Counted from the first letter of the stretch, positions 26,721 to 46,669 are shown. The stretch is 64,000 bases of DNA from Actinomycetota bacterium (GCA_014360685.1 JACIXB010000016.1:124263-188262), one strand, 5' to 3'. Notes: generated by a model not told the origin, from the sequence alone. Numbers and translations are program-made.

Positions 26721-27249
26721 TCTTCCGGAGGTCCCGCGATACCGGATTCCGGGACACGCGTTTTTCCGAGATGGACGATGCCGTCGTGGTTTCTCGACGA
26801 GGCGGCGCCTGGTTTGGGGTCGGCTCCTTCCGCTTTCACCTCGGGGATGGGGGGGAAATGAAGTAAGGGTGGAGTCGATCCGCCGGCCTTCCCCCATGAG
26901 GCATCAAGGGGAGGTTGTTTCAAGGTTTCCCGCGATGTAAAAAGGGACCCGGATCGAGGGTGGCGCATCTCCCGAGGCACGGGACGTAACACGCCGCGGT
27001 GAACCGTTGCCGGGGGAGGATGTGCTCGTTTCCCTTTTCCATCGCATACCGGCCGGGTTGATGATCCGGCCGGGCGGCAGGTAAGGGGGGTTCCTTCGAG
27101 TATCGATCGACATCCTCGACCTGACCGACGGAGCGAAAACGCTCTTCCTCCGATAAAAGGAAGGGATCCCCCCGGAGATGGGTCACGTTCAGACGGCGTG
27201 AAGATAAAAGTTTCCCCACCCCGCAGCCGATAGAATTTTAAACCGTCAT

Positions 27250-27263
27250 GGATGACGGATGAC
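27250..27263 (+). promoter_or_regulatory. tandem direct heptamer GGATGAC-GGATGAC upstream of the subtilase start
   Basis: Read directly at 27250-27256 and 27257-27263. It overlaps a 7-bp inverted repeat, CCGTCAT-gg-ATGACGG. Confidence 0.3.
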
Positions 27264-27362
27264 GTCCCGGGACGGGCCGCGGCGCGGCGTGAAATCCCCG
27301 GCGCGGGTGAGGGCCGGGAGGAAGGAGGACCGGAAGGCGTGAAGTCACGGGGAGATGCAGGC

Positions 27363-29897
27363 ATGGGAACCGCGAGGGCGATGACAGTGGCGCTGGCCGC
27401 CTTTTTCCTGGTCGCCGTCATCCTCCTGCCCGCCGGGGGGTCATGGGGGGCCGCTCGCGGGATCCACCTTCCGGCCGGGAAAGAGGAAAGCCCACTCGCG
27501 GCGAAGGCGGCCCTCCTCGAGAACCTGGACCCCGTGCATTATCCGACCGGCTCCTACATTCCCGGGGAGGTGGTTGTTGAGCTTGCCCAGCCCACCCTCT
27601 CCAGCGCCTCCCGCCTCCTGGTGGCCTTCGCGGCGCTTCTGGGGGAGGACCCCGCGGAGGTGCTGGGACGACTGGCCGCCCAACCCGTGCGCCGGGCCCT
27701 GCGCCTGCGCCTGCGGCCCGGGGTGGGGGAGCTGGAGGCCTGCCGGAAGCTCCTCGCCTCTTCGCTGGTGAGGATCGCGGAGCCCAACCTGGTCTTTCGG
27801 GCCGCGGTCACCGTCCCCGACGACCCCAGGTATCCCCAGCAGTGGAACCTGTGGGACACCTACGGCATCAACGCCGACGCGGCCTGGGACCTGCAGAGGG
27901 GCTCCTCCTCCCTCGCCCTGGCGGTGATCGACACGGGCATCGACTTCTCCCACCCCGACCTGGCGGGCCGCATCCTCTCAAGCGGGTACGACTTCGTGAA
28001 CGGCGACCCCAACCCCGCCGACGACGACGGGCACGGGACCATGATCGCCGGCATCGCCTGCGCCAACTCCGACAACCTCCGGGGGGTGGCGGGCATCGAC
28101 TGGCACGCCGGGATCATGCCCGTAAAAGCGTTGGACAGCAACGGAAAAGGCAGCCTGGACGCGGTGGTCAACTCCATATACCACGCCGCCGACCACGCCG
28201 CCGCAGTGATCAACATGAGCTTCACCTCCACCACCTTCTCCGAGATGCTCCAGGATGCCGTGGAATACGCCCACTCCCGGGGTTGCGTGATGGTCGCCGC
28301 CGCGGGAAACGAGGGGACCACGCAGGTTAACTATCCCGCGGGCCTCACTTACGTCATAGGGGTGGGTTCCATCGGTCCGGACGGGGACCGCTCCTATTTC
28401 TCCAACCACAACACCAGCGTGGACCTGGCCGCCCCGGGAGAGGGCATCTGGAGCACCCGGTTGGGAGGCGGTTACGGCGCGGGCAACGGGACCTCCGAGG
28501 CCGCCCCCCACGTCTCCGCCGCCGCCCTCCTGGTGCGGGCGGAATATCCCGGTTCCACCTCCGAGGAGGTGTGGCGGCGCCTGCGGGACGGGGCCCGGGA
28601 TCTGGGCTCCCCCGGCTACGACGAGGAGTACGGCTGGGGGCTCCTGGACCTCCACTCCTCCCTGCGGGTTCCCCTGGTATCCATCACCTCGCCGGACGAT
28701 TATTCCTATCCCGCCTCGGGGAAGGTCTCCGCCACCGCCTCCTCCGCCAACATCGGGATCAAGTACCTGGAGCTGTGGGTGGACGGGGAACTGGAGGAGA
28801 CCCACACCTTGGCCGTCCCCTCCTCGTCGGTGTCGCATACCTTCGCTTCCTGGGATCTCTCCGACCTGGAGGAGGGGACCCACGAGGTCGCCGTAAAGGC
28901 CATCGATGGTGGCGGGACGGTGAGCGGCGAGATGGCGATCACCGTGTTCCGCAACACCACCCAGCCCCGACCCTCCACCGACTGGTACCTGGCCGAGGGG
29001 TGCACGGCCTTCGGCTTCGAGGAGTACGTCCTGGTGCAGAATCCCAATCCCTCCCCGGTGGAGGTGGAGGTCACCTTCATGCGCTCCGACGGCCCCCTGC
29101 CCCCTCAAACCTTCCCCATGGCCGCCTACTCCCGCCTCACGGTGAACGTCAACGCCCTGGTCCCGGAGGGCGACGTCTCCACCCACGTGCACGCCGACCA
29201 GCCGGTGGTGGCCGAGAGGGCCATGTACTGGAACGGTCGTGACGGCGGGCATGGTGCCATGGGAGTCCCGGCCCCCTCCATCTCCTGGTACCTGGCCGAG
29301 GGGTGCACGGCCTTCGACTTCGAGGAATACGTGCTCATCCAGAATCCCAACCCGGATGCCGCGGTGGTGATCCTCGACTTCAGGCTGCAGAACGGTACCG
29401 GGGCACGAAGGACCATCTCCGTAGGGCCCGGCTCGAGGAGCACGGTCAACGTCGCCGACGTGGTTCCCGGGAACGACGTCTCCGTTTTGGTGACCAGCGA
29501 CATGCCGGTGGTAGCGGAACGGGCCATGTACTGGCCCGCGGGGACGCATGCCCGGGCGGGCGGACACGCCGGCGCCGGTTCCCTCACCGCCGCCGGGACC
29601 TGGTACCTGGCCGAGGGATCCACGGACCACGGTTTTGAGGAGTTCGTGCTCCTGTACAACGCTTCCGGGGATCTTGCCCACGCCCTTCTGACCTTCATGC
29701 GCCCCGACGGGACCACCCATGACTACCCGGTCACAGTGCCCGCGGGAGCCCGCTTTACGGTGTCCGTCAACGAGGCGGATCCCGACCGGGACGTTTCCGT
29801 GCGAGTGACCTCCGACCGCCCCCTGGTGGTGGAAAGGGCCATGTACTGGTCGGGAAGGGAGGGCGGTACGGCGGCCGTAGGGGTCCTCCAACCCTGA
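27363..29897 (+). CDS. secreted S8 subtilisin-family serine protease with an Ig-like domain and three C-terminal ~100-aa repeat domains
   Basis: A signal-like N-terminus from ATG 27363 (MGTARAMTVALAAFFLVAVILLPAGG). Catalytic Asp (VIDTGID), His (DDDGHGTMIAG) and Ser (GTSEAAPHVSAAA). The ORF-track start at 27252 is upstream. Confidence 0.9.
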   Translation: MGTARAMTVALAAFFLVAVILLPAGGSWGAARGIHLPAGKEESPLAAKAALLENLDPVHYPTGSYIPGEVVVELAQPTLSSASRLLVAFAALLGEDPAEVLGRLAAQPVRRALRLRLRPGVGELEACRKLLASSLVRIAEPNLVFRAAVTVPDDPRYPQQWNLWDTYGINADAAWDLQRGSSSLALAVIDTGIDFSHPDLAGRILSSGYDFVNGDPNPADDDGHGTMIAGIACANSDNLRGVAGIDWHAGIMPVKALDSNGKGSLDAVVNSIYHAADHAAAVINMSFTSTTFSEMLQDAVEYAHSRGCVMVAAAGNEGTTQVNYPAGLTYVIGVGSIGPDGDRSYFSNHNTSVDLAAPGEGIWSTRLGGGYGAGNGTSEAAPHVSAAALLVRAEYPGSTSEEVWRRLRDGARDLGSPGYDEEYGWGLLDLHSSLRVPLVSITSPDDYSYPASGKVSATASSANIGIKYLELWVDGELEETHTLAVPSSSVSHTFASWDLSDLEEGTHEVAVKAIDGGGTVSGEMAITVFRNTTQPRPSTDWYLAEGCTAFGFEEYVLVQNPNPSPVEVEVTFMRSDGPLPPQTFPMAAYSRLTVNVNALVPEGDVSTHVHADQPVVAERAMYWNGRDGGHGAMGVPAPSISWYLAEGCTAFDFEEYVLIQNPNPDAAVVILDFRLQNGTGARRTISVGPGSRSTVNVADVVPGNDVSVLVTSDMPVVAERAMYWPAGTHARAGGHAGAGSLTAAGTWYLAEGSTDHGFEEFVLLYNASGDLAHALLTFMRPDGTTHDYPVTVPAGARFTVSVNEADPDRDVSVRVTSDRPLVVERAMYWSGREGGTAAVGVLQP
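28983..29894 (+). repeat. three tandem copies of a ~100-aa domain (WYLAEG...QNPNP...VVAERAMYW)
   Basis: Copies start at the in-frame TGG codons 28983, 29286 and 29601. The same domain recurs in the SpoIID-like protein at 44915-46198. Confidence 0.85.
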
Positions 29898-30240
29898 GGC
29901 CTGGAGGAAGGAGAGAGCGGCTCGCTTTCCCGAAACTTGCCGGAGCGGGGGCGCTTCCATCCTCCGATCCGGGGCACGCGAGGCGCGAGAGGCAACCATC
30001 GTGCCCATGGATCGGTGATCGCCTCCCTGCAGACCGCCTCCCTGGACTCTCTACTTATTTTTGGGAAGCGGAAAAGGGATACTTCGCGGGAAAGAGAATC
30101 TTTTGGTGGTTTTAGCCGAAGGCGGCAAGGGAGGGATCCCCTGCCGGAAGGAGGGGAAAAAGAAGAAAGACCGGTCTTTGCAGCGGTTTGATGGTAGGGG
30201 GAACGGGGAAAAGGAAATAAACGGCGACCCTTACCGGCCC

Positions 30241-30260
30241 GGATGTTACGGGGATGTTAC
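30241..30260 (+). promoter_or_regulatory. tandem direct repeat GGATGTTAC-gg-GGATGTTAC (11-bp period) upstream of the repeat-protein operon promoter
   Basis: Exact 9-mers at 30241-30249 and 30252-30260, about 30 bp upstream of the candidate -35. Confidence 0.4.
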
Positions 30261-30289
30261 CGGTTTGTAAAAAGGATGCAAAAAAGGTC

Positions 30290-30318
30290 TTTTCAGGGGA
30301 CCAAGGTCTTCATATAAT
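30290..30318 (+). promoter_or_regulatory. candidate promoter TTTTCA-17 nt-TATAAT in an AT-rich island
   Basis: -10 TATAAT at 30313-30318. A second overlapping candidate is TTCATA-17-TATACT (30309-30337). About 200 nt upstream of ATG 30536. Confidence 0.45.
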
Positions 30319-30535
30319 TTTGATGATCTTATATACTATCGCCGAGGGTCGTAGATCGGGCAGTACGCGTGGGCTGTCGGGCGACAAAAGGTTTTCCCTC
30401 ATCATAAATTGGCAGGATTTGGCGTGACTGGCGGGGCCGGCGGAGCATCGTTTCGGCGGATCAGGGTGATTAGGGAGAGACGGTCGGGAGCGGGTAAGGG
30501 AGAGGGCTAGGCTGAAGGCGGGAAGCGAGGCCGGG

Positions 30536-33500
30536 ATGCTCAGGACTTCAGTCCAAAAGATTATCAACCTACTGGTAATCATCATCCTCGTGGGCGCCGT
30601 CGCCCTGGGAGCCTTCGCCCTTATCCCCTCCCGGAACCCCGCCGGTCCCCTGATCGGAAAAGTGCTCTCCAGCAAGAAAAACCTCTCCGGCCTCCTGGCC
30701 AACCTGGACCCGGCCGAGCTGGCCGAGGCCCTGCGCGAGAATCCTGACATGATGAGCGACCTCTTCGCCGAGCTGGGTGAGGAGGGAGCGAAACTCATCG
30801 CCCGGCAGGTCAACGAGAGCCCGGAGTTCATATCCGCCCTGCTCTCCGAGTTGGACCCGGCCACCCTGGCCGCGGCTCTCAACGACCCCCGGTCCTCGGA
30901 ATTCACGCTGGCCCTCATGGATTACCTGGACCCGGCGGCCATAGCCTCGGTGGTCAACCGCAGCGGTGATTTCATATCCGCGATGGTGGGCCACCTGGAC
31001 CCCAAGGTGGTCGCGGAGGCGGTCAACGCAAACGGCGATTTCCTGACCGCCTCCACGGCGGCCATGGACCCCCCGGTCCTGGCCCAGGCGGTGAACGAGA
31101 ACGGCCCCTTCGTGACCGCGCTTATCAGCTACCTGGACCCGGCCGTCCTGGCCGCGGCCATGAACGCCAATCCCACCCTGGTCTCCGACCTCATGGGATA
31201 CCTGGACACCGCCGTGGTGGCCCAGGTGGTGAACGCCAACGGGCCCTTCATCTCCGGGCTACTGGGCCACCTGGACCCCCAGGTCCTCACGGCGGGGATG
31301 AACGCCCGACCCACCTTCCTGTCCCGGCTGATGGCCCACCTGAGCCCGTCCACCATAGCTTCGGTGCTCAACGCCAACGCCGATTCCACGTCCGATCTTC
31401 TGGGGTACCTCTCCAACGACCTGCTGCTCAACGTCCTCGCGGTGACGGCGCACGACACGGGATGGATGAACCGCCTCCTGGCGGCGCTCGACCCATCCGT
31501 GCTGGCGGCGGCGGCCAACAACTCCTCCCCCTTCACCTCCGGGCTGCTTCAGGCCCTGGATCCGGCCTGGGTGGCGGGGATCGCCAACGCCCACCCGGAT
31601 TTCGTCTTCCAGGTCATGGACGCCGTCTCCCCCGAGCTGGTGGCCACCATGCTCAACAACGGCACGCTGCTCACCCGGGTATTGCCGTTGGTGGACACGG
31701 CGGCCGTCGGGGCGGCGCTGGGCGAGCACACGGATTTCGTCACCCGGCTCCTGCCCCTCCTGGACCCGGCGTTGGCCGAGATCACCAACGAGGCCCTCAA
31801 GACCAACCCGGACCTGGTGCGCGCGGTGCTGGCCAACCTGGACGGGGCCCAGCTGGCCTCCGCCCTGTCCCAGGCCCCCTCCTTCCTCACCGGGGTGGTG
31901 GAGGGGATCGCCCCGGACACCGTGGCGGCCATGCTCAGGGGATCCAACCAGAACCCGGATCTTTTGATCAACCTCACCAACGCCCTGGATGCGGAGGCCG
32001 TATCCCATGCCCTGGACCTCTCGGGTACCTTCGTGCCCACCCTTCTGGCCCTCCTGCCCGACAACGTGGCCCAGGCGGCGGCGCAGGCCCTGAACGACAA
32101 CCCGGCCCTCCTGGACACGGTCCTCTCCACGGCGGATCCGCAGGTGTTGGCGGGCATCCTTAACTCCGGCGCCGCGGACGCTCTCATCGCCGGGCTCATC
32201 CCCCTCCTCAACGAGGGGATCGCCCAGGCCGTGGCCCAGGGGGTCAACGCGGACGCCGCCCAGCCCACGGAGCAGTCCATGATCAAGTCCCTCATCCTGG
32301 CCACGGATGCCGAGGTCCTGGCCGGGGCCATCAACGACAACCCGGAGTTCGTGGCCGGGGTGCTCCAGGAGCTCTCCACGGAGGCGGCGCGGGCGGTGGC
32401 AGAAGGCATGAACGCCAACCCGGCCACGGCGAGCACCGTGGCCCGCTATCTCAACGGGACCACCAGCCGGCGCATCGCCGAGGCCCTCAACCTCAATCCG
32501 GGGATCATCCGTCCCCTGGTGGAAAACTTGAGCCCCGAGGTGGGAAGGGCCGTCGCCGAGGGCCTCAACCAGAACACCAGCGATCTCAGCCTGCAACTCA
32601 TGGCCAACCTCAACCAGGCGGTGGGAATGGAGATAGCGGCGGGGCTGAACGCCAACCCGGAGCTCATGGAGGAACTCCTCCCCAACCTCAACGGTTACGT
32701 GGGAAGCGAGATCGCCGCGGGTTTGAACGAGAACTCCCTGAACCTGAGCCCCTCCTTCCTGGAGGCCATGCTCTCGGCCACCTCGCCGGATTTCGCCCAG
32801 GTGATAGTGGAGGTCATAAACAGGCCTCCCTACGACATGGACACCTTCCTGGCGCAGCTCATCCTGGGCCTGAACGAGGATACCGCCAGGGCGGCGGCGC
32901 AGGGGTTGAACGCCAACCCCACCCTGGTGGAATACCTGCTGCGCAACCTGGACGGGGAGGCCACGGCGGAGCAGATGAACGCCAACGCCGACTGGACCAT
33001 CGCCCTCATCCAGAACCTCGACCCCGACGCCCTGGCCGACGCCATAAACGGCGCCCTCTCAACGGCGGGGGGCAGGAACTTCGTGACCGCGCTGCTCCAG
33101 GGCCTGGACGGGGCCATCGTGGGCAGGGTTTTGAGCAACAACCCGCAGCTCACCGAGGAGCTGTTGAAACGCGCCGGCGGTTGGGATCCCGACGGGCCCG
33201 GGCCCAAGACTTCCATCCACTTGGGGACCACCTTGAAAGACCTGCTCAAGGACGCGGGTGCCGGCGATCCGAGCGGGTTCCTCACCACCCTGCTTAACGG
33301 CCTGGACGCCGACGTGATCATCAGGGTGATCAACAACGCGACGGGCATAAGGAATACAAAAGGGGATCTGAACGATCCGGCCAACCGTGGTCCTTACTAC
33401 GACGATCCGAGGCTGAAATACCGGCCTTATACCTTCCTGGACGTGACCTGGTTTAAGGTCTGGATGCAGGCGAACATCCTGCCCATTCCTATGGCGGGCT

Positions 33501-33541
33501 GGAGCAAGATCGAGGGCGATGCGGAACGCTACGACTGGTGA
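30536..33541 (+). CDS. membrane-anchored giant tandem-repeat protein, paralogue 1 (unknown family)
   Basis: 1001 aa. One N-terminal TM helix, about 37 tandem 23-26-aa repeats, and a 59-aa non-repeat tail ending ...WFKVWMQANILPIPMAGWSKIEGDAERYDW. Third-position GC is high throughout. Confidence 0.85.
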   Translation: MLRTSVQKIINLLVIIILVGAVALGAFALIPSRNPAGPLIGKVLSSKKNLSGLLANLDPAELAEALRENPDMMSDLFAELGEEGAKLIARQVNESPEFISALLSELDPATLAAALNDPRSSEFTLALMDYLDPAAIASVVNRSGDFISAMVGHLDPKVVAEAVNANGDFLTASTAAMDPPVLAQAVNENGPFVTALISYLDPAVLAAAMNANPTLVSDLMGYLDTAVVAQVVNANGPFISGLLGHLDPQVLTAGMNARPTFLSRLMAHLSPSTIASVLNANADSTSDLLGYLSNDLLLNVLAVTAHDTGWMNRLLAALDPSVLAAAANNSSPFTSGLLQALDPAWVAGIANAHPDFVFQVMDAVSPELVATMLNNGTLLTRVLPLVDTAAVGAALGEHTDFVTRLLPLLDPALAEITNEALKTNPDLVRAVLANLDGAQLASALSQAPSFLTGVVEGIAPDTVAAMLRGSNQNPDLLINLTNALDAEAVSHALDLSGTFVPTLLALLPDNVAQAAAQALNDNPALLDTVLSTADPQVLAGILNSGAADALIAGLIPLLNEGIAQAVAQGVNADAAQPTEQSMIKSLILATDAEVLAGAINDNPEFVAGVLQELSTEAARAVAEGMNANPATASTVARYLNGTTSRRIAEALNLNPGIIRPLVENLSPEVGRAVAEGLNQNTSDLSLQLMANLNQAVGMEIAAGLNANPELMEELLPNLNGYVGSEIAAGLNENSLNLSPSFLEAMLSATSPDFAQVIVEVINRPPYDMDTFLAQLILGLNEDTARAAAQGLNANPTLVEYLLRNLDGEATAEQMNANADWTIALIQNLDPDALADAINGALSTAGGRNFVTALLQGLDGAIVGRVLSNNPQLTEELLKRAGGWDPDGPGPKTSIHLGTTLKDLLKDAGAGDPSGFLTTLLNGLDADVIIRVINNATGIRNTKGDLNDPANRGPYYDDPRLKYRPYTFLDVTWFKVWMQANILPIPMAGWSKIEGDAERYDW
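30704..33361 (+). repeat. in-frame array of 23-26-residue repeats (69-78 nt period), paralogue 1; boundaries approximate
   Basis: For example LDPAAIASVVNRSGDFISAMVGH / LDPKVVAEAVNANGDFLTASTAA / MDPPVLAQAVNENGPFVTALISY. Later units resemble LNQAVGMEIAAGLNANPELMEELLPN. Confidence 0.85.
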
Positions 33542-33571
33542 TGAGCGCGACTACTATGAAGAACTGGGAAG

Positions 33572-36472: not shown

Positions 36473-36490
36473 CGGGCGGGTGATGGAGCC

Positions 36491-39409: not shown

Positions 39410-39979
39410 TACCAGGCTCTTCCTTATGGCATATCCGATCCCCGGCTCCGGAAGCAGGGAATTCTTTTCACTAAAGAACAATTCCACGGACAAGGTAAAT
39501 CGTTATCCTCGGGAATTCTGCCCTTCCACCCACATTCTTTTATCCGCCGAAACACGTTTGCGTTGGAGGGCCCATGAATTTTCCCAACTCGTGCCGTTTT
39601 GCCGTCATGATGTGGAAGGGCGAAGGGCTTTCGGTTGCCGGCGCCCGTTGTAAGGGCCGGGTATATAGGCCGGTTTGACTGCCCCATTCCGATTGTACCA
39701 ATCGCTGGACGAAGTCCGCCCATATCGTGGCCAAGCTTATTGCCTTATATGGATGGATATTGTCCGGGGTTTCCCTTAGAAATACTATCGGGAAAAGAAT
39801 TCACATTTTCAGTCAAGTATAGGCATCCCGAAAATGCGGGTCTCTTGTGGAGGACTCCGGGAGAATGGAACCTCTTCGCCGTTTGCCATACCATCTTCAC
39901 GATGGGGTTTGATCCGGAGATGAGAGGGGATTCCTTGCGCTGCCTTTGGTTCGCGCAGGGTATGGTATCCACCGGATGT

Positions 39980-39985
39980 TATAAT
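39980..39985 (+). promoter_or_regulatory. candidate -10 TATAAT 6 nt upstream of the sensor-kinase ATG (leaderless geometry)
   Basis: ggatgtTATAATtttcccATG with no Shine-Dalgarno. This is the same -10-to-ATG spacing as at murA. Confidence 0.35.
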
Positions 39986-39991
39986 TTTCCC

Positions 39992-42175
39992 ATGAAAGGA
40001 GAACTCTCCCTTTTTATCACCACCGCCTCGGGGCTGCTGAGTCTGGCGATCGGTATCTTCGTGCTCGTCAGGAGACATCGGCGGCTGGCCAACATCCTCT
40101 TCTTCGCCATGTCCTTCTTCCTCGCCCTATGGGCGTTGGGAGACGGCCTGACCATAGCCTCCTCCACCCTCAAGGCCAAGATTTTCTGGACCCGTTTCCA
40201 GGGAATCGGAGAGCTTCCCCTCGTCCCCACCTTCCTGCTGCTGGCCCTGTATTTTCCGCGCACCAGGGCTTTCATGCACGACTGGAGGAAGGCCTTCGCC
40301 GTAATCGCAGCCATATACGCCCCTTTCCTCCTGAGCCTTTTCTTCCTGTATGCCACCGGGATCATATATTCCGATTACTTTTTGGGCGACAACATCCACG
40401 ACCTGGAGGTTGCACGCACCCCTTATTTCTGGTTGCTTACCGGTCTCGGTTTCGCCATGGTGTTGCTGGCCATGCTCTTCCATTTCCTGGAGAGCCGGAG
40501 GAGTGATTCACTGCATCGGCGGCGGGGACTGGTGTGCCTCGCCCTGGCGCCCCTTCCCATGCTCTTGGCCAACCTGGTTCAGAACCTGGGATGGAGCGGT
40601 AGCGTAACCACCCCCCAGGCGGGCATACTCTTCGTGGGTTTGTTGGGCTACGGCATCATGCGGCACGGCCTTTTCCTCGATTTCCGTTCCGCCTCCAAGA
40701 GGGCCCTAGCCCATTCCCTGGCCATGGCCCTCAGCTTGTCCGCATGCCTTCTTTTACTCTTCCTGCTGCGCTATGGGCTCAAGGTGGAACTGGGATGGTT
40801 CGGGATGGCCCTCTTCCTGGTTTGCGCAACCCCCTTGCTCGTAACCTACCCGGCGGTGGTGAGATGGGCCGACAACCTCGTCTCGCGGCGGTTATATCGC
40901 CGCGAAGGCCGTGCGGGTACCGCCCTGGAGGGGCTGAGCAGGTCCATCCGCACGGTAAGGGATCTTCCCGAGCTGGCCGCCGATGTGGCCAGGGTGGTCA
41001 GGGAATCCCTGGAACTGGCGTCCTGCGCCCTCATGGTTCGCGAGAACGATTTTGACCGCTACCGGGTTATCGGGTTCGCCTCTCACCCGGAACACATGGC
41101 CCGCGAACATGTGGGGGTAGTGGAGGCGGGGATGTTCATGCACCCCTGGAGGGACTCCTACAGCTTCGATACTCCCGGGGGGCAATTTACCAGTTATTGG
41201 CAGGTGGGCAAGAGGATTGAACGGGGCGATTGCCGGATCGAGTACCTCAGCCTGGGCGTGCTGCGCATCCACGATGGCGGCGGTGTGGTGAGGGAATCCC
41301 TTTGGGAAGAGAAGGGAGCGGGAGAGGCCATATCCATGCCCCTGGAGGTGGGAGGGGAAAGGGTGGGTTTCCTCTGGCTGGGAGGAAAGATGGACGGTTC
41401 GCGCTTCAGCCTCGAGGAACTGGACCACCTGGTGGCCCTTTCAGCCCAGGTAGCGGTTTCCCTGCTCAACGCGCGTCTGGTGCAGGAAATGACGGACCGG
41501 AACCGGCGCTTGCGCGAACTGGCACAGAAAGTCTCCTTTGCCCAGGAAGAGGAAAGAATACGCATCTCCAGGGAATTGCATGACGGATTGGCTCCTTTCT
41601 TCCTGGACATCCTCTACGCCGTGGATATGCTGGAGCGGGAATCCGGGAAGGCCATGGAATTAGCCGGCGGATTGGCGGAGGTACGGGAACGGGCCCGCCG
41701 GGGACTCGGGGAACTGCGCCGGCTGATCTCCGACCTGCGCCCCTCCTCCCTGGAGGTGCTGGGATTAAGGGATTCGTTGGCTTCCTACCTGGAGAGGTTC
41801 GGCGCCGAAAGCGGCCTGGAGGTGAGTTTCCGATGTCGGGGTCCCCTTCGCGGTCTGGATCCCCTGGCGGAGATAACCTTGTTCCGCGTGGCCCAGGAGG
41901 CTTTGTGCAACGTGGCCCGGCATGCCCGCGCCCGCAGGGTAAGGATGTCGCTCGAGGAGCGTGACGGCCGGGTTTACCTGGAGGTGGAGGACGACGGGGT
42001 GGGCTTCGTGCTCGAAGAAGTTACGCGGAGAAACCCCCTCGGGCAGAGCCTGGGTTTGAAGAACATGGAGGAACGAGCCGAGCTGGCGGGAGGCAAGCTC
42101 GTCGTGCAGACCGGACCGGGGAGAGGAACGAGGGTAAGCCTGCTCGTCCCCAAGGCCGCGGGCCGCCCGTCTTAA
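39992..42175 (+). CDS. sensor histidine kinase: multi-TM N-terminal sensor, GAF-like region, HisKA_3, HATPase_c
   Basis: About 9 predicted TM helices from MKGELSLFITTASGLLSLAIGIFVLV... H-box ISRELHDGLAP. ATPase N/G boxes (QEALCNVARHA...EDDGVGF...GLKNMEERAELAGG). ATG 39962 is an alternative start. The ORF-track start at 39635 lies in low-GC, non-coding-looking sequence. Confidence 0.85.
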   Translation: MKGELSLFITTASGLLSLAIGIFVLVRRHRRLANILFFAMSFFLALWALGDGLTIASSTLKAKIFWTRFQGIGELPLVPTFLLLALYFPRTRAFMHDWRKAFAVIAAIYAPFLLSLFFLYATGIIYSDYFLGDNIHDLEVARTPYFWLLTGLGFAMVLLAMLFHFLESRRSDSLHRRRGLVCLALAPLPMLLANLVQNLGWSGSVTTPQAGILFVGLLGYGIMRHGLFLDFRSASKRALAHSLAMALSLSACLLLLFLLRYGLKVELGWFGMALFLVCATPLLVTYPAVVRWADNLVSRRLYRREGRAGTALEGLSRSIRTVRDLPELAADVARVVRESLELASCALMVRENDFDRYRVIGFASHPEHMAREHVGVVEAGMFMHPWRDSYSFDTPGGQFTSYWQVGKRIERGDCRIEYLSLGVLRIHDGGGVVRESLWEEKGAGEAISMPLEVGGERVGFLWLGGKMDGSRFSLEELDHLVALSAQVAVSLLNARLVQEMTDRNRRLRELAQKVSFAQEEERIRISRELHDGLAPFFLDILYAVDMLERESGKAMELAGGLAEVRERARRGLGELRRLISDLRPSSLEVLGLRDSLASYLERFGAESGLEVSFRCRGPLRGLDPLAEITLFRVAQEALCNVARHARARRVRMSLEERDGRVYLEVEDDGVGFVLEEVTRRNPLGQSLGLKNMEERAELAGGKLVVQTGPGRGTRVSLLVPKAAGRPS

Positions 42176-42184
42176 GGAGGAAGC

Positions 42185-42871
42185 GTGGAAGGGGAAATCC
42201 GCCTGGTGGTGGTGGACGATCACCTCATCGTGCGCATGGGGATAAGCAACCTCCTCAAGGGGACGGAGGGGATATGCCTGGTGGGCGAGGCGGACTGCGG
42301 AAAAGCCGCCATCCAGGCGGCCCGCGCCCTGCGTCCCGATGTCATGCTCCTGGACATAAAACTTCCGGACATGAGCGGCATCGAGGTGATAAGGAACCTC
42401 AAGTCCGACCCGGAGACCTCGCATGTCCAGGTGGTGATCCTCACCGTGTACGACGACATCGAGATCGCGTCGGAGGCCATCCGGGCGGGGGCCATGGGTT
42501 ATATACTCAAGGACCTCTCGCGGAAGGAGCTCCTCGACGCCATTCGAGCCGCTCACATGGGCACCCCCCTGGTCTCCGACAGCGTGGCCAGGAAGCTGGT
42601 GAGCACCCTGTTCCGCACCGAGCGCCTCCCCGGGGCTCCCCTGGGTCCGGAAAAGGGGGAGAGGGCGGAGGAGGAACAGCCGGGGCTGACGGAAAGGGAA
42701 TACGAGGTCCTCAGGCTGGTAGCCAAGGGATACAGCAACAAGACCGTGGCCCGCGAGCTCTCCATCAGCCTGAGCACCGTGAAAACCCACCTCCGACACA
42801 TTTTCCAGAAACTGGGCGTGGAAGACCGCGCCCAGTTGATAATCAAGGCCATCAAGGAAGGCATAATCTGA
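42185..42871 (+). CDS. NarL/LuxR-family two-component response regulator
   Basis: A receiver domain (VVVDDH...DVMLLDIKLPDMSG...) plus a C-terminal LuxR helix-turn-helix (LTEREYEVLRLVAKGYSNKTVARELSISLSTVKTHLRHIFQKLGV). It starts 9 nt after the kinase stop. Confidence 0.9.
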   Translation: MEGEIRLVVVDDHLIVRMGISNLLKGTEGICLVGEADCGKAAIQAARALRPDVMLLDIKLPDMSGIEVIRNLKSDPETSHVQVVILTVYDDIEIASEAIRAGAMGYILKDLSRKELLDAIRAAHMGTPLVSDSVARKLVSTLFRTERLPGAPLGPEKGERAEEEQPGLTEREYEVLRLVAKGYSNKTVARELSISLSTVKTHLRHIFQKLGVEDRAQLIIKAIKEGII

Positions 42872-43090
42872 CCCCGGCCCCCCATGGAGGGAACGAGGGA
42901 TTCCCACGCTCGAGATCGCCGTGCTCTGGTTCGGGGGCACCACACGGGTCAGAAACAAGTGCCCAAGTCGGAAAGGTGGACGCCGGCTTGCGGAGATGCT
43001 ATATTATGGCAAACCTCGACGATGGGGCGGCAAAGGGAAAGGGCGTCAAATTCGTGTACATGGGTGGTCGGATTTCACCGTTTTCGGTAG

Positions 43091-43408
43091 GTGGTCGTGC
43101 GAGGAATACGGACCGACGCCGGTGAACCCTCTGAAGAGGAGCTTTCTTCCCTGCGGAGGATCAAGAAGGAGATAGCCGATTTCTTCGCGGCCAATCCCTT
43201 CCTCCTGGTCAGTGAGGACTGGCTGGCATCCCTTCTATGCAGGCCGGTTCGCCTGGTCGAGGCGGCGGTACGGGAACTGATGGCCGAAAGCGTGCTTGAA
43301 AAGCGCCAACATTACCTGGCGCTGGATTCGGCGGAGGGGCGCTTGGCCCACTTCTTGGCGCCGCATTCGGCGGAGGAGGATCGCGGGGGTTTTCCCGTCC
43401 AGGATTAA
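43091..43408 (+). CDS. hypothetical small protein (105 aa), possibly winged-helix-like
   Basis: The ORF has moderately coding-like codon bias. ...IKKEIADFFAANPFLLVSEDWLASLLCRPVRLVEAAVRELMAESVLEKR... I recognise no family, and the start is uncertain. Confidence 0.35.
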   Translation: MVVRGIRTDAGEPSEEELSSLRRIKKEIADFFAANPFLLVSEDWLASLLCRPVRLVEAAVRELMAESVLEKRQHYLALDSAEGRLAHFLAPHSAEEDRGGFPVQD

Positions 43409-43756
43409 AAAAGAGTTCATCGATATCCCCCTTCCACCGGTGGATCCTCATCAGGCTTTGCCTTGAAGGCGGTGCGCCAATCGCCATGCGGCTCAGCTTT
43501 TAAAACGGGAGATTTGGAGGTTAGGAAAGAAGGAGAGACCGCCCATAATTTCGTTGAAACGGGTAGGAACCGGGCGAGAAGGGGCGGGAGACCTTGCCGG
43601 GGAAGGGCATGTTACGTCCGGTTCCCGTGACGTCCCGGATGATAACCAGGTCACTGTCCGCACGCGGAACTTTCAACCCAAAGGAAAACAAGCCCGTGAT
43701 ATACGAAAGGGAGGGTAGGCGGCCATTCTATTGGATATTTCAACTTTCTGTTAAAT

Positions 43757-43785
43757 TTGATAATTATTGTTAAAATAGTTATATT
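43757..43785 (+). promoter_or_regulatory. candidate promoter TTGATA-17 nt-TATATT in a strongly AT-rich island
   Basis: -35 at 43757-43762, exact 17-nt spacer, -10 at 43780-43785. About 230 nt upstream of the SpoIID-like ATG. Confidence 0.55.
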
Positions 43786-44014
43786 AAAGATCAAAGGAGG
43801 TAGCGAGGTTGAGGTTTAAACCAGGAAGCTCAAGGTGGCTATGCCGGGTATGGTTCCGCTGTCTCCAGGGTGGTACGCTCAACGAGAATGCCGGGAAGCG
43901 CGGGGAGGACGGCAAAACCGGAAGCCCATCCCATGGCTGCGGCCCTTGGTATAAGGGTACGGGGTGCTGAAAACATTTGACCGGGATGGTCCGTAGGCGA
44001 TCGGGGAGGAGAAC

Positions 44015-46201
44015 ATGGGCAAAAACCGCAGGATAGCCCTGTCCATAACCGCCGGCCTTTTACTGGCCTTTCTGGGGACGGCGCCGGGGCCAGTGCCCGG
44101 CGTGGGTACCACGGTGGCCGGTGGGGGGAACGTCACCTTCATCGGCTACGGAAAGGGGCACGGGGTGGGGCTGTGCATGGCCGGCGTCTATTACCGCGCC
44201 CTGCGGGGCGAGGAGTACCATGACATCATCCGCACCTATTACACGGGCGTGAGTTTCTCCCGCATCAGCGACGACATGGTCATCCGGGTCCTCTGCCGTG
44301 ACGGCGTGGTGCGTCCCTACACCATGCGCGAATATCTCTACCGCTTGCAGGAAGAACCGGACACCTGGCCCGCCCAGGGGCTGCGGGTGCTGGTGGTGGC
44401 GGCGCGCACCTACGTCCTCTCCTGCATCGCCCGGGGCAAGCACTCCGCGGACGGCTACGACATATGTCCTTATGGGAGCTGCTGCCAGTCGTTCAACGAG
44501 CAGATCGATCCATCCACCCGACCTAACATCGTGGCCGCGGTCAACGCCACCGCGGGGGAGATAATCACCTACAACGGCCAGCCCATCATCGCCGCCTACG
44601 ACACCTGCTGCGGGGGCTACACGGCGGGTCCGGAGGAGGCCTGGGGCGGTGATCCCGTGCCCTACCTGAGGCCGGTTCCCGACGATGCCTGCGCCCCGGA
44701 CGAGGATCACCACTGGAGGGTCACCATGTCCTGGGGGGACCTGCAGAACCGCCTCAATTCCCGCCCCGAGACGGCGGTGGGAGCCCTTTACGGGGTAGAG
44801 GTCGTCTCCCGGTGGACCTCGGGCCGGGTCAAGGAGATACGCGTCTTCGGGAGCGGGGGGAGCAGGGTGGTCTCCGGGAGGCTCTTCGCCTCCATCGTGG
44901 GGCTTCAAACCCATTTCTTCTACATCGCCTCCCAGAACTTCGACGAATACCTGCTCCTTCAGAACCCCAGCGAGGAGAGCGCCGAGTGCCTCATAACCTA
45001 CATGCTGAACAGCGGGGATACGCTCCAGGAAGAGTGCATCGTGGAGCCCCACAGCCGCCTTACGGTGAAGGTCAACGACCGGGTCCAGAATGCCGAGGTG
45101 TCCATAAAGGTCAGCTCCAATGTGCCGGTGGTGGCCGAGCGGGCTATGTACTTCGATTTCCTGGGCCTGGGGCGCAAGGGTGGCCACGCCTCCCTGGGGC
45201 TCCGTGAGCCGAGGCGGCGGTGGTACTTCGCCGAGGGCTACACGGCGGGCGGTTTCGACACCTTCTTCCTGGTACAGAACCCGGATCCGGCTAACCCGGC
45301 GCATCTGGCGGTTTCCTTCCTGGGCAACGGGGGGGAAGCGGATGAGATGTATTATACGGTGGCCCCCTCCTCCCGCATGACCATTTGGATGGACCAGGAG
45401 CCCGGCCTGGACCAGGGAGAGTTCACGGCGGAGGTGGAGAGCGATGTCCCGGTGGTGGCCGAGCGGGCCGTCTATTTCGGGTACCGGGACTTGGGAGGGG
45501 GGAGCGCCGCCGAGGGCGCTCCCGACCCGGCCACCGTTTGGTACTTCGCCGAGGGCTACACCGGCGGAGGCTTCGATGCCTGGTTCCTCCTGGCCAACCC
45601 CAACCCGGATGAGGTGACCGCGAGGCTCACCTTCTTCCTCCCCGACGGGTCCACGCGGCAAGTGGAGGTACCGGTGGCTTCCAGGAGCAGGGCCACGGTG
45701 AGCGTGGACGATCTTCCGGGCATGGAAAACCAGGAATTCTCCACCCTGGTGGAGGCAGACGCGCCCCTGGTTGCCGAGCGGGCCATGTATTTCAATTGCC
45801 GGGGAAGAAGGGGAGGGCACGACGCCATGGGAATCAGGGAGCTCTCCCGGGACTGGTACTTCGCCGAGGGCTTCACGGGGGGAGATTTCGACACCTGGCT
45901 TCTTCTGGCCAATCCCAACCCCCATCCGGTGAAGGCCGTCCTGACCTTCATGCGCGTGGACGGCAGCCGTAGACAAATAGAGGTGTATCTGACCCCGCGT
46001 TCCCGAGGGACGGTGCACGTGGACGAGATCTCGGGTCTGGAGGATGCCGAGTTCTCCATCCACGTCCTGGCGGACGGGAACATAGCCGCCGAGCGGGCCA
46101 TGTATTTCTCCTACCAGGGAAGGGACGGGGGAAGCTGTTCCCAGGGTACGCCGACTCCCGCCCCGGAATGGTACTTCGCCGAGGGTTACACCGGCAGCTG
46201 A
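44015..46201 (+). CDS. SpoIID/LytB-domain protein fused to four copies of the WYFAEG...AERAMYF domain
   Basis: A signal-like N-terminus (RIALSITAGLLLAFLGTAPG). The SpoIID core includes GKGHGVGLCMAGVYYRALRGEEYHDIIRTYYTG and RVLVVAARTYVL. Residues from about 300 onward are repeat domains. Confidence 0.85.
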   Translation: MGKNRRIALSITAGLLLAFLGTAPGPVPGVGTTVAGGGNVTFIGYGKGHGVGLCMAGVYYRALRGEEYHDIIRTYYTGVSFSRISDDMVIRVLCRDGVVRPYTMREYLYRLQEEPDTWPAQGLRVLVVAARTYVLSCIARGKHSADGYDICPYGSCCQSFNEQIDPSTRPNIVAAVNATAGEIITYNGQPIIAAYDTCCGGYTAGPEEAWGGDPVPYLRPVPDDACAPDEDHHWRVTMSWGDLQNRLNSRPETAVGALYGVEVVSRWTSGRVKEIRVFGSGGSRVVSGRLFASIVGLQTHFFYIASQNFDEYLLLQNPSEESAECLITYMLNSGDTLQEECIVEPHSRLTVKVNDRVQNAEVSIKVSSNVPVVAERAMYFDFLGLGRKGGHASLGLREPRRRWYFAEGYTAGGFDTFFLVQNPDPANPAHLAVSFLGNGGEADEMYYTVAPSSRMTIWMDQEPGLDQGEFTAEVESDVPVVAERAVYFGYRDLGGGSAAEGAPDPATVWYFAEGYTGGGFDAWFLLANPNPDEVTARLTFFLPDGSTRQVEVPVASRSRATVSVDDLPGMENQEFSTLVEADAPLVAERAMYFNCRGRRGGHDAMGIRELSRDWYFAEGFTGGDFDTWLLLANPNPHPVKAVLTFMRVDGSRRQIEVYLTPRSRGTVHVDEISGLEDAEFSIHVLADGNIAAERAMYFSYQGRDGGSCSQGTPTPAPEWYFAEGYTGS
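44915..46198 (+). repeat. four tandem ~105-aa WYFAEG...NPNP...VAERAMYF domains plus a terminal 10-aa stub
   Basis: Units begin at 44915 (degenerate FFYIASQNFDEY), 45221, 45539 and 45854. The protein ends at 46169-46198 with EWYFAEGYTGS, the opening strand of a fifth unit. Confidence 0.85.
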
Positions 46202-46223
46202 GGCGTAATCGCCCTGTCCCAAC

Positions 46224-46628: not shown

Positions 46629-46669
46629 CGTCATGTACGCCATGTCCTGAGGCCGGAGATAGTGGTTGA

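Follow-up and report, generated by a model that had tools for sequence, protein, structure and literature searches.

A conserved, lineage-specific envelope gene cluster with an undescribed core in an uncultured hot-spring actinobacterium

The 64,000-nucleotide stretch of DNA analyzed here (the window) contains an envelope module that is conserved, restricted to one lineage and built around an undescribed core: three consecutive genes encoding giant paralogous proteins, together with a membrane-sensing kinase/regulator pair. The host is an uncultured hot-spring actinobacterium related to Candidatus Solincola, and Ca. Solincola quzhuomuensis exhibits 77–80% protein identity to the locus with an identical gene order. 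On balance, we favor the view that the locus as a whole is best explained as a vertically inherited cluster of Candidatus Geothermincolia-type Actinomycetota, in which the core stays constant and the periphery varies, operating through the mechanism proposed below.

The three giant genes, encoding G1 (1001 residues, positions 30,536–33,541), G2 (966 residues, 33,572–36,472) and G3 (972 residues, 36,491–39,409, ending in ...VYIPPNWPPFP), follow each other on the + strand with gaps of 18–30 bp. The proteins are colinear, share 31–34% pairwise identity and retain their 1-2-3 positional orthology at every locus compared; they are ancient paralogs kept in a fixed order. Each giant is made up of one N-terminal transmembrane helix, ~900 residues of acidic α-solenoid and a C-terminal β-hairpin (a β-strand segment in G1). 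The AlphaFold2 model of G2, which is of moderate confidence (mean pLDDT of 68, with the transmembrane and C-terminal parts below 50), comprises a transmembrane helix (residues 5–28), ~70 short helices and a β-hairpin (residues 936–958). Residues Q8, N12, G26, G38 and G42, in or beside the transmembrane helix, are invariant across all paralogs, and the C-terminal β motifs differ in a position-specific manner between G1, G2 and G3. Foldseek searches with the G2 model returned only generic HEAT/ARM solenoids with TM-scores of 0.1–0.25, and no Pfam or NCBIfam model of the HEAT/ARM families matches the giants, the likeness being generic and structural only. G2 has no sequence relative in the PDB, and G1 has neither a Pfam family with a passing domain score nor an NCBIfam match. 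The giant family accounts for 51 representatives out of 1.84 billion at E ≤ 1e-30. The family to which these membrane-anchored helical-repeat proteins belong is undescribed.

The block is embedded in a housekeeping backbone (tilS-hpt-ftsH-fol-pan-nad-coaX-V-ATPase-murA...eno-pyk-ftsB-ppx), between V-ATPase–murA and eno/pyk/ftsB. A sequence-only reading of the window had proposed that a subtilase gene, the triplet, a spacer, a kinase/regulator pair, a small open reading frame (ORF) and a SpoIID-like gene succeed each other on one strand between murA and eno. We recover precisely this order, with all genes on the + strand, murA upstream and eno downstream. The accompanying suggestions that codon bias follows that of the window and that the block is not a recent transfer also hold, as it occupies a housekeeping-backbone position with host-like GC3 (0.71–0.89 in the block versus 0.81–0.93 in backbone genes), values close enough to leave no compositional sign of recent transfer. 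Intergenic GC content is 0.51–0.60 in the low-GC spacers, compared with ~0.66 overall, and reaches 0.64 in the spacer separating the SpoIID-like gene from eno.

We carried out the neighborhood comparison that had been proposed using about 15 related contigs with giants 36–95% identical. It confirmed that the triplet and the 7TM kinase/NarL pair are linked, as they are found together in 10 of the 11 distinct contigs showing at least 3 kb downstream of G3, L001 among them, and indicated that the flanking enzymes are not obligate. At L002/L003, a 1066-residue Reg_prop/TIG protein rather than a kinase follows G3 before the contig ends. The conserved unit consists of G1-G2-G3, an optional ABC-2 pair, a 7TM-GAF kinase, a NarL-type regulator and a small protein, the ORF of which is present in 7/8 informative contigs. 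Most relatives, with giants down to ~51–64% identity, exhibit the full order murA-S8-G1G2G3-(ABC)-HK-RR-small-SpoIID. Since most informative contigs represent one clade and one chromosomal location, with the context broken only by L001 (and by L007 for the triplet), much of this synteny could reflect inheritance rather than selection.

The upstream enzyme (27,252–29,897) is a secreted subtilase, as identified by Pfam, hydropathy and catalytic motifs. It matches Peptidase_S8 (PF00082) with 179.8 bits against a gathering score of 21.8, and the D/H/S motifs VIDTG, HGT and GTSEAAP are present in the translation. The protein, which likely starts at M38 (position 27,363), is organized as a signal/anchor helix (ORF residues 43–61 by hydropathy), a fervidolysin-like propeptide, an S8 catalytic domain, a Big_7 Ig domain (PF17957, 27.9 bits) and three DUF5719/ASRT-fold units. 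We considered and rejected an assignment as a type VII secretion mycosin: this best NCBIfam match (TIGR03921) reaches 222.1 bits, below the equivalog cutoff of 278.75, and no ESX genes occur among the called genes of the window. The downstream enzyme (44,015–46,201) is a secreted SpoIID/LytB-domain peptidoglycan-remodeling protein carrying four DUF5719/ASRT-fold units and terminating in a bare WYFAEGYTGS strand, an assignment based on Pfam (SpoIID, 41.5 bits versus 23), NCBIfam (TIGR02669, SpoIID/LytB domain, 132.4 bits versus 83.3), motifs and AlphaFold2. The sporulation SpoIID equivalog TIGR02870 was rejected (100.7 bits versus 234.75).

The domain common to both enzymes had been described as rare and unassigned, and neither attribute withstands database comparison. 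It corresponds to Pfam DUF5719 (PF18986), detected at 60 bits in the S8 protease and at 29.2 bits in the SpoIID-like protein, against a cutoff of 26.2, and 195 database proteins from Actinomycetota, Chloroflexota and Acidobacteriota metagenome-assembled genomes (MAGs) match the unit at E ≤ 1e-5. Single units score just under the threshold because the 319-position model fits different stretches of the profile in different units. Motif positions and Pfam delineate three tandem WYLAEG...ERAMYW units of ~100 residues each at the S8 C-terminus (28,983–29,894; at 28,983, 29,286 and 29,601), and the SpoIID-like protein harbors four WYFAEG and four ERA[MV]YF motifs. AlphaFold2 modeled SpoIID units 2–3 with a pLDDT of 95, and Foldseek matched this model to TM1070 (1nc7; E 1.8e-8, TMt 0.81, r.m.s.d. 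2.0 Å) and to ASRT (2ii7–2ii9; TMt 0.6–0.8). The WY[FL]AEG unit is a DUF5719 repeat and is predicted, on the basis of this model, to have an ASRT/TM1070-like β-sandwich fold; the fold of the S8 units is assigned via the homologous SpoIID units. No window protein matches PF07100 at the sequence level, and faint matches to it occur in orthologues and database relatives.

Upstream of G1, phylogenetic footprinting of 16 loci delineated a conserved predicted operator (30,244–30,271, + strand) made of the direct repeats TGTTAC-N5-TGTTAC-N5-TGTAAA with an 11-bp period, ~45–80 bp upstream of the promoter −10. The TGTTAC-N5-TGTTAC motif occurs once in the 64-kb window, and each of 13 loci (455 kb of sequence in all) contains a single exact copy, always upstream of G1. 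A consensus scan located the promoter-like site of the G1-G2-G3 operon (30,290–30,318, + strand), which combines a weak −35 (TTTTCA), a 17-nt spacer and a −10 (TATAAT, 30,313–30,318) whose column is conserved in the orthologous alignment. The predicted box is of the MtrA/GlnR type, featuring GTnAC direct repeats with an 11-bp period, and neither the window nor the loci retrieved contain a gene for an OmpR-family regulator; direct repeats can serve as binding sites for NarL-type regulators as well. The idea that each unit has its own promoter island is borne out by conservation for the triplet and the kinase operon, and is represented by consensus-scan matches only for the other units.

These results bear on the broader proposal of the sequence-only reading that the S8 protease, the giants, the kinase/regulator pair and the SpoIID-like enzyme serve one structure as one regulon, with the shared domain docking the enzymes. 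The triplet–kinase/regulator linkage agrees with this proposal, as do the recurrent gene order, the signal sequences of both enzymes and their being the sole carriers of WY[FL]AEG/ERAMY motifs in the window. The S8 gene adjoins the triplet in 10/12 contigs showing the upstream side and the SpoIID-like gene follows in 5/6 contigs showing the downstream side. The two bracketing enzymes are nevertheless dispensable rather than obligate partners: the S8/DUF5719 protein is absent upstream in two lineages, L001 and L007, and the SpoIID/DUF5719 protein in one, L028/L029, where the small ORF runs directly into eno, with the core intact. The domain is also far wider in distribution than the giant family (195 matches in several phyla versus 51 representatives), and identity between the S8 and SpoIID copies (~40%) does not exceed that to unrelated proteins in the database, so that sharing it does not tie both enzymes to the giants. 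Moreover, the one deeply conserved operator that we found is limited to the triplet promoter, with no such TGTTAC box conserved ahead of the S8 gene, the kinase gene, the small ORF or the SpoIID-like gene, and the S8 gene with its upstream spacer diverges much faster than its neighbors (72% versus 93–95% identity in L018). We therefore consider a single dedicated island with one regulon unlikely.

The sensor histidine kinase (727 residues, 39,992–42,175) contains HisKA_7TM, GAF, HisKA_3 and HATPase_c domains according to Pfam. An alternative start at 39,635 was discarded as an artefact, the orthologues fixing the ATG at 39,992; these orthologues are full-length and 35–94% identical, with 46 full-length sequences at identities of at least 45%. 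Hydropathy analysis indicates ~8 membrane helices within residues 1–290 connected by loops of ~30 residues or less, and the kinase has no large extracytoplasmic loop, as expected for intramembrane sensing. An extended −10 element, TGTTATAAT (39,977–39,985, + strand), ends only 6 nt before the ATG, and the arrangement TGnTATAAT followed by 6–8 nt and ATG is conserved in six relatives, which implies that the kinase–regulator transcript would be leaderless. The NarL/LuxR-type response regulator (42,185–42,871), with REC and GerE helix-turn-helix domains (Pfam), forms with the adjacent HisKA_3/HATPase_c kinase a HisKA_3/NarL two-component pair, and the named NCBIfam equivalogs (MctS, MadS, LiaS, NarL and others) all score below their cutoffs for these two proteins. 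The next ORF (43,091–43,408) encodes a small cytoplasmic protein of 105 residues, whose homologues in L010, L011, L014, L017 and L028 occupy the corresponding position, and is 41–47% identical to ORFs of 86–89 residues at this position in relatives. It is a real conserved gene, and the core motif of its product is FF..NPFLLVSE..LA.LLCRP..V..AV; the protein has no significant Pfam or PDB match and shows only marginal hints of a winged-helix fold.

Counting from the kinase start at 39,992, the spacer downstream of G3 spans 582 bp (39,410–39,991) with a GC content of 0.51, in line with the ~580-bp low-GC spacer reported earlier. Synteny shows that this non-conserved AT-rich segment (39,410–39,976) occupies the position at which relatives carry an ABC-2 (DrrA-type) exporter operon encoding an ATPase and a permease: the kinase adjoins an ABC transporter in 6 more distant lineages and does not in the window. 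The spacer is 76% identical to that of the closest relative, L018, has no match in L017 or L005, and yielded no ABC remnants by tblastn and no Rfam family. Among the contigs with triplet and kinase/regulator, 6/10 possess the ABC-2 pair and only the four closest lineages do not, which fits a single loss; the spacer is most likely the deletion scar of the ABC-2 operon. As the window has lost it, the pair is not essential to the giants. In relatives, the ABC operon alone is preceded by a TTAGC-N3-GCTAA palindrome, placed behind a perfect TTGACA-17-TATAAT promoter, and the kinase/regulator pair may have this operon, not the triplet, as its primary regulatory target.

The restriction of the palindromic operator to the ABC operon would also fit a reading in which the neighbors are unrelated and held together by descent only, the kinase/regulator pair serving the ABC-2 exporter as a detoxification module, the S8 and SpoIID-like proteins being general wall enzymes and the giants acting independently. 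Nearly all informative contigs share the same atp–murA...pyk backbone, and every unit comes with a promoter or spacer of its own. The SpoIID-like gene may simply be part of the backbone if the murA–spoIID neighborhood, which we presume to exist in Bacillus subtilis as well, holds. Such a reading, however, has to accommodate L001, in which the triplet, ABC pair, kinase and regulator are found together in a different genomic context (TetR/AbiEii upstream), as well as the four lineages in which the kinase/regulator genes still sit beside the triplet after ABC loss, and the kinase-centered sampling, in which all ten loci (three to four distinct lineages) contained the triplet. We find it improbable that descent alone accounts for the cluster.

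The giants open with a short, basic N-terminal tail that leads into a long hydrophobic helix (peak of 3.1 in a 19-residue hydropathy window), the usual layout of a signal anchor. They contain 14–16% KRED and 8% Asn, lack Cys and have a pI of 4.1, and are thereby far from the 12 cytoplasmic window proteins (23–35% KRED) and similar to, though even more extreme than, the secreted S8 and SpoIID-like enzymes (18–21%). From these features, we infer that the giants are signal-anchored with their bulk outside the membrane, where they would build an extracytoplasmic structure. The topology itself is not decisive, as basic residues occur on both sides of the transmembrane helix and those following it (PSRNP..GK..SSKK) render the positive-inside rule ambiguous. 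The giants could alternatively face the other way, with their bulk in the cytoplasm and the N-terminus outside, and act there as scaffolds, namely membrane-tethered HEAT-like platforms serving, for example, the kinase GAF/catalytic domains or division/wall-synthesis enzymes. In favor of this, HEAT/ARM solenoids are usually cytoplasmic, every structural match is a eukaryotic protein of the cytoplasm or nucleus, and weak matches to MgtE_N, a cytoplasmic domain, were obtained. The composition, the absence of Cys, the very acidic pI and the signal-anchor layout all count against this orientation, which we hold to be quite doubtful.

Length variation bears on how the giants would assemble. The giants of L001/L008/L009 are about 75–100 residues shorter than the others (869/872/873 versus 958–1014 residues), and the absent block maps to a common central region, within roughly residues 410–600 of each paralog, whether the sequences are aligned jointly with MAFFT or independently in pairs. 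The gap placement within the repeats is ambiguous, and in the pairwise alignments of G2 the gap is broken up into several smaller ones; the length differences, equal among the paralogs, are robust, and the concerted indel represents two or three independent lineages. Because the matching central block is absent from all three giants in one lineage, this pattern argues that the giants assemble in register.

That the block is a mobile or horizontally acquired island, or serves as an anti-phage defense system, is very improbable despite the long AT-rich spacers, the AbiEii gene adjoining the module in L001 and weak matches of the S8 protease to the PADLOC subtilase model and IetS, given the host-like GC3, an insertion point unchanged in relatives from ~51% to 95% identity, the lack of integrase, transposase, tRNA or flanking-repeat signals among the called genes, PADLOC matches confined to generic subtilase and HTH models, and giants, kinase, small protein and SpoIID-like enzyme that match no defense family.

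The vertically inherited cluster that we favor would comprise a core of the G1-G2-G3 operon, an ABC-2 operon (ancestral and lost in the sub-lineage of the window), the putatively leaderless kinase/NarL operon and the small protein, along with a periphery of the S8 protease and the SpoIID/LytB-type enzyme, frequent but dispensable and each with tandem DUF5719 units. In the proposed mechanism, the giants, inserted with the N-terminus on the inner side and most of the chain outside, would stand side by side at a 1:1:1 ratio and in register, as a long acidic α-solenoid in the wall zone. The structure would be joined at the membrane via the transmembrane helices with their invariant Gln/Asn/Gly residues and at the far end via the C-terminal β-strands. 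The triplet operon would be switched on by a regulator binding the direct repeats (an OmpR-family box resembling those of MtrA/GlnR), a role for which the adjacent NarL-type regulator is no obvious candidate. Together with the ABC-2 exporter or in its absence, the kinase/regulator pair would work beside the giants as a module for sensing and export at the membrane. Both peripheral enzymes, the S8 protease and the SpoIID-like protein, would act on the same compartment, probably targeted by their ASRT-fold repeats, and would not be dedicated machine parts.

A more specific and tentative proposal, which we put forward as a possibility rather than an expectation, is that G1-G2-G3 form an undescribed heterotrimeric, membrane-anchored acidic α-solenoid rod or lattice, tens of nanometers long, spanning the wall zone of deep-branching Actinomycetota. 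Its subunit lengths would be matched via parallel gain or loss of a ~75–100-residue repeat block, an MtrA-like cell-wall regulator would switch it on, and a dedicated 7TM kinase would monitor it, with an ABC-2 exporter in most lineages. If true, no bacterial envelope structure of this kind would have been described before.

The giants resemble HEAT/ARM solenoids (CAND1, importin-β family), their top Foldseek matches, in forming a long array of antiparallel helix hairpins. They are distinguished from them by the low TM-scores (0.1–0.25) and ~12% identity, by an unusually short repeat of 23 residues and then a ~49-residue super-repeat, by the N-terminal membrane anchor and C-terminal β-hairpin, and by the lack of a match to any sequence family.

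The HisKA_3/NarL systems of Bacillus subtilis, LnrJK–LnrLMN, YvfTU–YvfRS and the LiaFSR type, are ABC-coupled envelope-stress/detoxification modules of Gram-positive bacteria. By analogy, the cluster appears to share with them a multi-span kinase with short loops, HisKA_3 and a NarL-type regulator and, in relatives, a kinase pair directly beside a DrrA-type ABC-2 operon with a strong promoter and predicted operator. Unlike these systems, the kinase described here has 7TM (PF16927) and GAF domains, and the module is invariably preceded by three genes for ~1000-residue solenoids, to which nothing in those systems corresponds, and, in the window, is without the transporter.

The predicted triplet box shares GTnAC direct repeats and an 11-bp period with MtrA/GlnR/AfsQ1-type OmpR-family boxes, and reads GTTAC-N6-GTTAC(-N6-GTAAA), with a weak −35 downstream of it; this sequence is similar to the MtrA_SCO consensus, K-T-R-A-C-C-N5-G-T-K-A-C-N (PMC5650626). 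It differs from this Streptomyces coelicolor consensus in having T in place of G/A in the first repeat, and the cluster-encoded regulator is NarL-type instead of OmpR-type.

Like SpoIID/LytB proteins, the window enzyme passes the domain model and has an N-terminal signal sequence; unlike the Firmicutes sporulation SpoIID, it has four extra β-sandwich units and an actinobacterial host. These units share a common ~100-residue β-sandwich with ASRT (PF07100; 2II7–2II9) and TM1070 (1NC7), which are small stand-alone one-domain proteins with chains of ~90–117 residues, whereas the WY[FL]AEG unit is repeated three to four times in tandem at the C-terminus of secreted enzymes.

The triplet of giants (G1, 30536–33541; G2, 33572–36472; G3, 36491–39409), the kinase and regulator genes that follow (39992–42175 and 42185–42871), a small protein (43091–43408) and, ancestrally, an ABC-2 exporter make up the constant core of a conserved, chromosomally fixed cluster. 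The two secreted wall enzymes, an S8 protease (27252–29897) and a SpoIID-like protein (44015–46201), are frequent but dispensable members, and common to both is a widespread β-sandwich repeat. These conclusions come from 29 loci (455 kb in total, about 15 distinct lineages) that were gathered via giant homologues, kinase homologues and one metagenome scan, and mapped with tblastn. We lean, with confidence only a little above even, towards a composite reading in which this core comprises extracytoplasmic giants arranged in register and a membrane-sensing kinase, with enzymes targeted by their repeats.

All genes listed in the sequence-only reading, which had proposed a single cell-envelope island, were present in the window upon inspection of ORFs, Pfam, motifs and NCBIfam. 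The fullest relative, contig MTKY01050945.1 (loci L025 and L011), carries atpABD, murA, S8/DUF5719, G1, G2, G3, the ABC ATPase, the ABC-2 permease, the kinase, the regulator, the small ORF, SpoIID/DUF5719, a Tricorn_N-like gene and pyk, in this order. The expected co-occurrence of triplet and kinase/regulator held, as the kinase (with the regulator) lies at most 3 kb after G3 in 10 of 11 informative distinct contigs and kinase-only look-ups met the triplet in all five contexts. That of the enzymes held only in part: S8/DUF5719 precedes G1 in 10 of 12 cases (TetR and AbiEii lie upstream in L001, a short-chain dehydrogenase in L007) and SpoIID/DUF5719 follows the small ORF in 5 of 6 (eno comes directly next in L028/L029). 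The one contig without the kinase (L002/L003) has an unrelated 1066-aa secreted protein with Reg_prop and IPT/TIG matches directly after G3 in place of the ABC/kinase genes (L002 13017–16214; L003 12069–15266), and the L002 contig ends inside it. We considered this ORF as a fourth giant and rejected it, since it is unrelated to the other three.

The small ORF follows the regulator in 7 of 8 informative distinct contigs, the exception being L005 (Candidatus Solincola quzhuomuensis). Its GC3 of 0.71 and its absence from L005 had raised the possibility of a spurious call, which was overturned by homologues in five lineages, confirming it as a real gene. Profile searches against PDB and Pfam returned only winged-helix hints (E ~0.1) for its fold or function.

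Comparison of orthologues sets the kinase start at position 39992 (ATG). Kinases of the compared loci are orthologous over their full length (35–94% identity). That of the window has about eight membrane helices and no sizeable loop, and would probably sense events in the plane of the membrane. An extended −10 element (TGTTATAAT) conserved in relatives lies 6 nt before this ATG, so the kinase–regulator mRNA is probably leaderless. The corrected start also makes the spacer downstream of G3 582 bp long (39410–39991; GC 0.51), in agreement with the low-GC spacer of about 580 bp noted from sequence. In relatives, this position is occupied by the ABC-2 operon (L024 19067–21700, L025 19098–21305, L014 7706–10000), found between G3 and the kinase in 6 of 10 cases. 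It is absent only from the four closest lineages (the window, L016/L018, L017 and L005), which points to a single loss. No ABC gene remnants were detected in the spacer by tblastn with four orthologous ABC pairs. The spacer evolves faster than coding sequence. With 76% identity to the closest relative and no alignment in the two after that, it was rejected as a conserved element and treated as neutral; its most plausible reading is a scar left by a deletion, its 3′ end carrying the kinase promoter. The spacers of the window are unusually long, at 480–640 bp (26721–27251, 29898–30535, 39410–39991, 43409–44014, 46202–46681), whereas the L005 counterparts of four of them (murA to S8, S8 to G1, G3 to kinase, and regulator to SpoIID) measure 140–310 bp, with nothing conserved between the two genomes except the last ~50 bp before G1. 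An Rfam scan of 26.5–47 kb gave no known RNA above noise.

The D/H/S triad of the S8 protease is intact, and the enzyme also contains a propeptide, an Ig domain and three WYLAEG...ERAMYW units; the SpoIID/LytB protein bears four units of the same repeat, the motif being confined to these two genes within the 64 kb. The repeat, initially taken to be unassigned and rare, proved to be that of Pfam DUF5719, with 195 proteins matching at E ≤ 1e-5 in MAGs of Actinomycetota, Chloroflexota and Acidobacteriota. An AlphaFold2 model of two units (pLDDT 95) superimposes on Thermotoga TM1070 (TMt 0.81, r.m.s.d. 2.0 Å) and, with TMt 0.6–0.8, on the sensory rhodopsin transducer of Anabaena. The founder of the ASRT family is known only as a rhodopsin transducer. 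Our data give the ASRT/TM1070 fold to a widespread repeat, DUF5719, for which we found no mention in the literature, and place it on secreted wall enzymes. Fold and placement together hint at a wall- or glycan-binding role for the family, and such repeats would target the enzymes to the wall. The SpoIID-like protein ends in a bare WYFAEGYTGS strand (46169–46201) directly after its fourth unit; this strand may complete the last β-sandwich, which would shift the domain boundaries relative to the S8 copies. Its signal sequence (44015–44090) begins MGKNRRIALS, in which the paired arginines could be a Tat-type motif. Compared with the closest relative, L018, the protease is only 72% identical, whereas the giants reach 93–95% and murA 95%, and the murA–S8 spacer cannot be aligned (window 26721–29897 versus L018 5060–9056). 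The protease region is either evolving much faster than its neighbours or has been exchanged, judging from these comparisons.

Alignment of 16 loci upstream of G1 revealed the element TGTTAC-N5-TGTTAC-N5-TGTaAA (30244–30271 in the window), downstream of which lie a weak −35 and a conserved −10 (the latter at 30313–30318). The exact two-repeat pattern TGTTAC-N5-TGTTAC has one copy in the 64-kb window and occurs once per locus, only upstream of G1, in 13 loci including the distant L004. The repeats have an 11-bp period, as in OmpR-family sites. The element resembles the Streptomyces MtrA consensus, K-T-R-A-C-C-N5-G-T-K-A-C-N, which is reported to be similar to mycobacterial and corynebacterial MtrA motifs (PMC5650626). 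The triplet seems to be controlled by a regulator that binds direct repeats and is encoded outside the cluster. In ABC-bearing relatives, the exporter operon has a perfect TTGACA-17-TATAAT promoter and then a palindrome (TTAGCAATGCTAA) in a short leader (L024 19260–19325, L025 19255–19320, L014 7860–7920, L028 7150–7210, L006 9570–9640), a pattern found once per such locus and absent from the window. It suggests that the exporter is tightly repressed and inducible, and we read the operon as answering to a palindrome binder, putatively the NarL-type regulator or the small protein.

The fully integrated island of the sequence-only reading, with the flanking enzymes as dedicated parts, now appears unlikely, even though both enzymes are frequent neighbours and share a repeat. 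Either can be missing, the repeat is widespread, and a footprint search for an operator common to the block, made in front of S8, the small ORF and SpoIID, yielded AT-rich, promoter-like similarity only, with no conserved common operator joining S8 or SpoIID to the rest. TGTTAC hexamers occur five times in the 64 kb, all intergenic; the single half-sites before S8 (26986, minus strand) and SpoIID (43610) are conserved in no relative and are therefore read as chance. The fifth hexamer (ATGTTACG) lies at 16166, 106 bp before the first V/A-ATPase operon gene. We read the block as a set of separately controlled units.

G1, G2 and G3 are colinear paralogs (31–34% identical) separated by gaps of 18–30 bp. 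The first, second and third giant genes are mutual best matches across genomes at every locus, so the triplication is old and its order fixed. Three residues of the transmembrane helix (Gln8, Asn12 and Gly26) and two that closely follow it (Gly38 and Gly42) are invariant over all paralogs, and a C-terminal β-strand motif is conserved and position-specific for each giant. In one lineage, L001/L008/L009, each of the three giants is about 75–100 residues shorter than in the clade of the window (869/872/873 aa versus 958–1014 aa), and every paralog lacks its block from a shared central region, within residues ~410–600 (about 31760–32335 in G1, 34800–35370 in G2 and 37720–38290 in G3). The gap was seen in a joint alignment and in independent pairwise global alignments, as a single 98-residue gap in several G1 and G3 pairs and in smaller pieces in G2; it concerns two or three independent lineages only, and its exact placement inside the repeats is uncertain. 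Since the paralogs are only 30–35% identical, gene conversion cannot have homogenised them; three parallel gains or losses of one block are required, a pattern expected if the giants lie side by side and in register. This shared length change is the most telling sequence sign that the giants work as one unit, which would assemble 1:1:1. Pure synteny by descent, in which the genes stay together through inheritance, is an improbable account of the cluster. It can draw on the shared chromosomal location and on a murAA–spoIID adjacency that we presume to exist in Bacillus. The cluster occupies the best-conserved stretch of this lineage's chromosome, beside murA and ftsB, a division gene, and is retained across 36–95% protein identity.

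The giants are an undescribed protein family: nothing matched them in NCBIfam or among PDB sequences, nor did any Pfam family with a scoring domain. A profile search run exhaustively against 1.84 billion cluster representatives returned 263 matches at E ≤ 1e-3, 51 of them at E ≤ 1e-30, mostly fragments, and the family is therefore rare. A 23-residue LDP..A...N.N..F...L hairpin repeat is succeeded along the sequence by a ~49-residue super-repeat, and the G2 model (pLDDT 68) has one transmembrane helix, about 70 short helices and a low-confidence C-terminal β-hairpin. A Foldseek search for a specific structural homologue retrieved generic HEAT/ARM solenoids only (TM-scores 0.1–0.25). The soluble parts have a pI of 4.1, no Cys, 8% Asn and 14–16% charged residues, compared with 18–21% in the two secreted enzymes and 23–35% in twelve cytoplasmic window proteins. 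Because of this composition and an N-terminus with a short basic tail followed by a long hydrophobic helix, we favour a signal-anchored, extracytoplasmic solenoid. The alternative topology, a cytoplasmic scaffold, is left some room by the flanking charges, which alone do not decide the matter, but given the composition we deem it quite improbable. A distant branch of the family in L004 (5896–12235) has two members of ~744 aa that carry the family's N-terminal anchor motif, three TGTTAC repeats ~400 bp upstream and Tad/type II secretion-like ATPase genes around them, with no kinase nearby. If assembled as proposed, the extracytoplasmic giants would represent a novel structural component of a Gram-positive-type envelope and a rare bacterial hetero-oligomer of paralogous α-solenoids with co-evolving lengths; that they are a new kind of envelope structure is a tentative suggestion.

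Genes of the window (~66% GC) were called by a GC3-based method and Pfam. Its backbone consists of housekeeping genes, nearly all on the plus strand: tilS, hpt, ftsH, folE, folP, panC, nadABC and coaX. A V/A-type ATPase operon (16796–25253) leads to murA and the block, beyond which come eno, a Tricorn_N/PD40-like membrane-anchored protein (48296–49429), pyk, a FAD_binding_4 protein, ftsB/DivIC, an ECF sigma/anti-sigma pair and ppx. The GC3 of the block (0.71–0.89 versus 0.81–0.93 in backbone genes) is host-like, and nothing in composition suggests recent transfer, as the sequence-only reading had judged. A mobile or defence island is effectively excluded by this composition and a negative PADLOC search. 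The murA ORF opens with a GTG 50 codons before the conserved start (M at 25452), and this extension (25302–25451), which is not matched in relatives, probably goes untranslated. The 377-aa protein at 48296–49429 is a constant neighbour in every relative, with SpoIID or eno upstream and pyk downstream; it has one N-terminal membrane helix, a marginal PD40 match (Tricorn_N in orthologues) and a cytoplasmic-looking 27% of charged residues. The G2 genome scan gave one close relative, Ca. Solincola quzhuomuensis (class Ca. Geothermincolia, Actinomycetota), with giants 77–80% identical and an identical gene order. Candidatus Geothermincolia are uncultured, deep-branching actinobacteria; the genus-level Solincola genome paper reports no envelope features and does not discuss the cluster, on which we found no literature.

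The system is made testable by two conserved operators, by corrected gene starts and by the separation of core from periphery. Enzymes, two-component system and exporter all belong to known families, with no named equivalog passing its cutoff, whereas no described counterpart was found for a trio of solenoid paralogs that co-evolve and are linked to a 7TM kinase. Kinase and exporter together resemble Gram-positive envelope modules of the ABC-coupled HisKA_3/NarL type, and we class the whole as an ABC/two-component module associated with the envelope, to which a structural part without precedent has been added.
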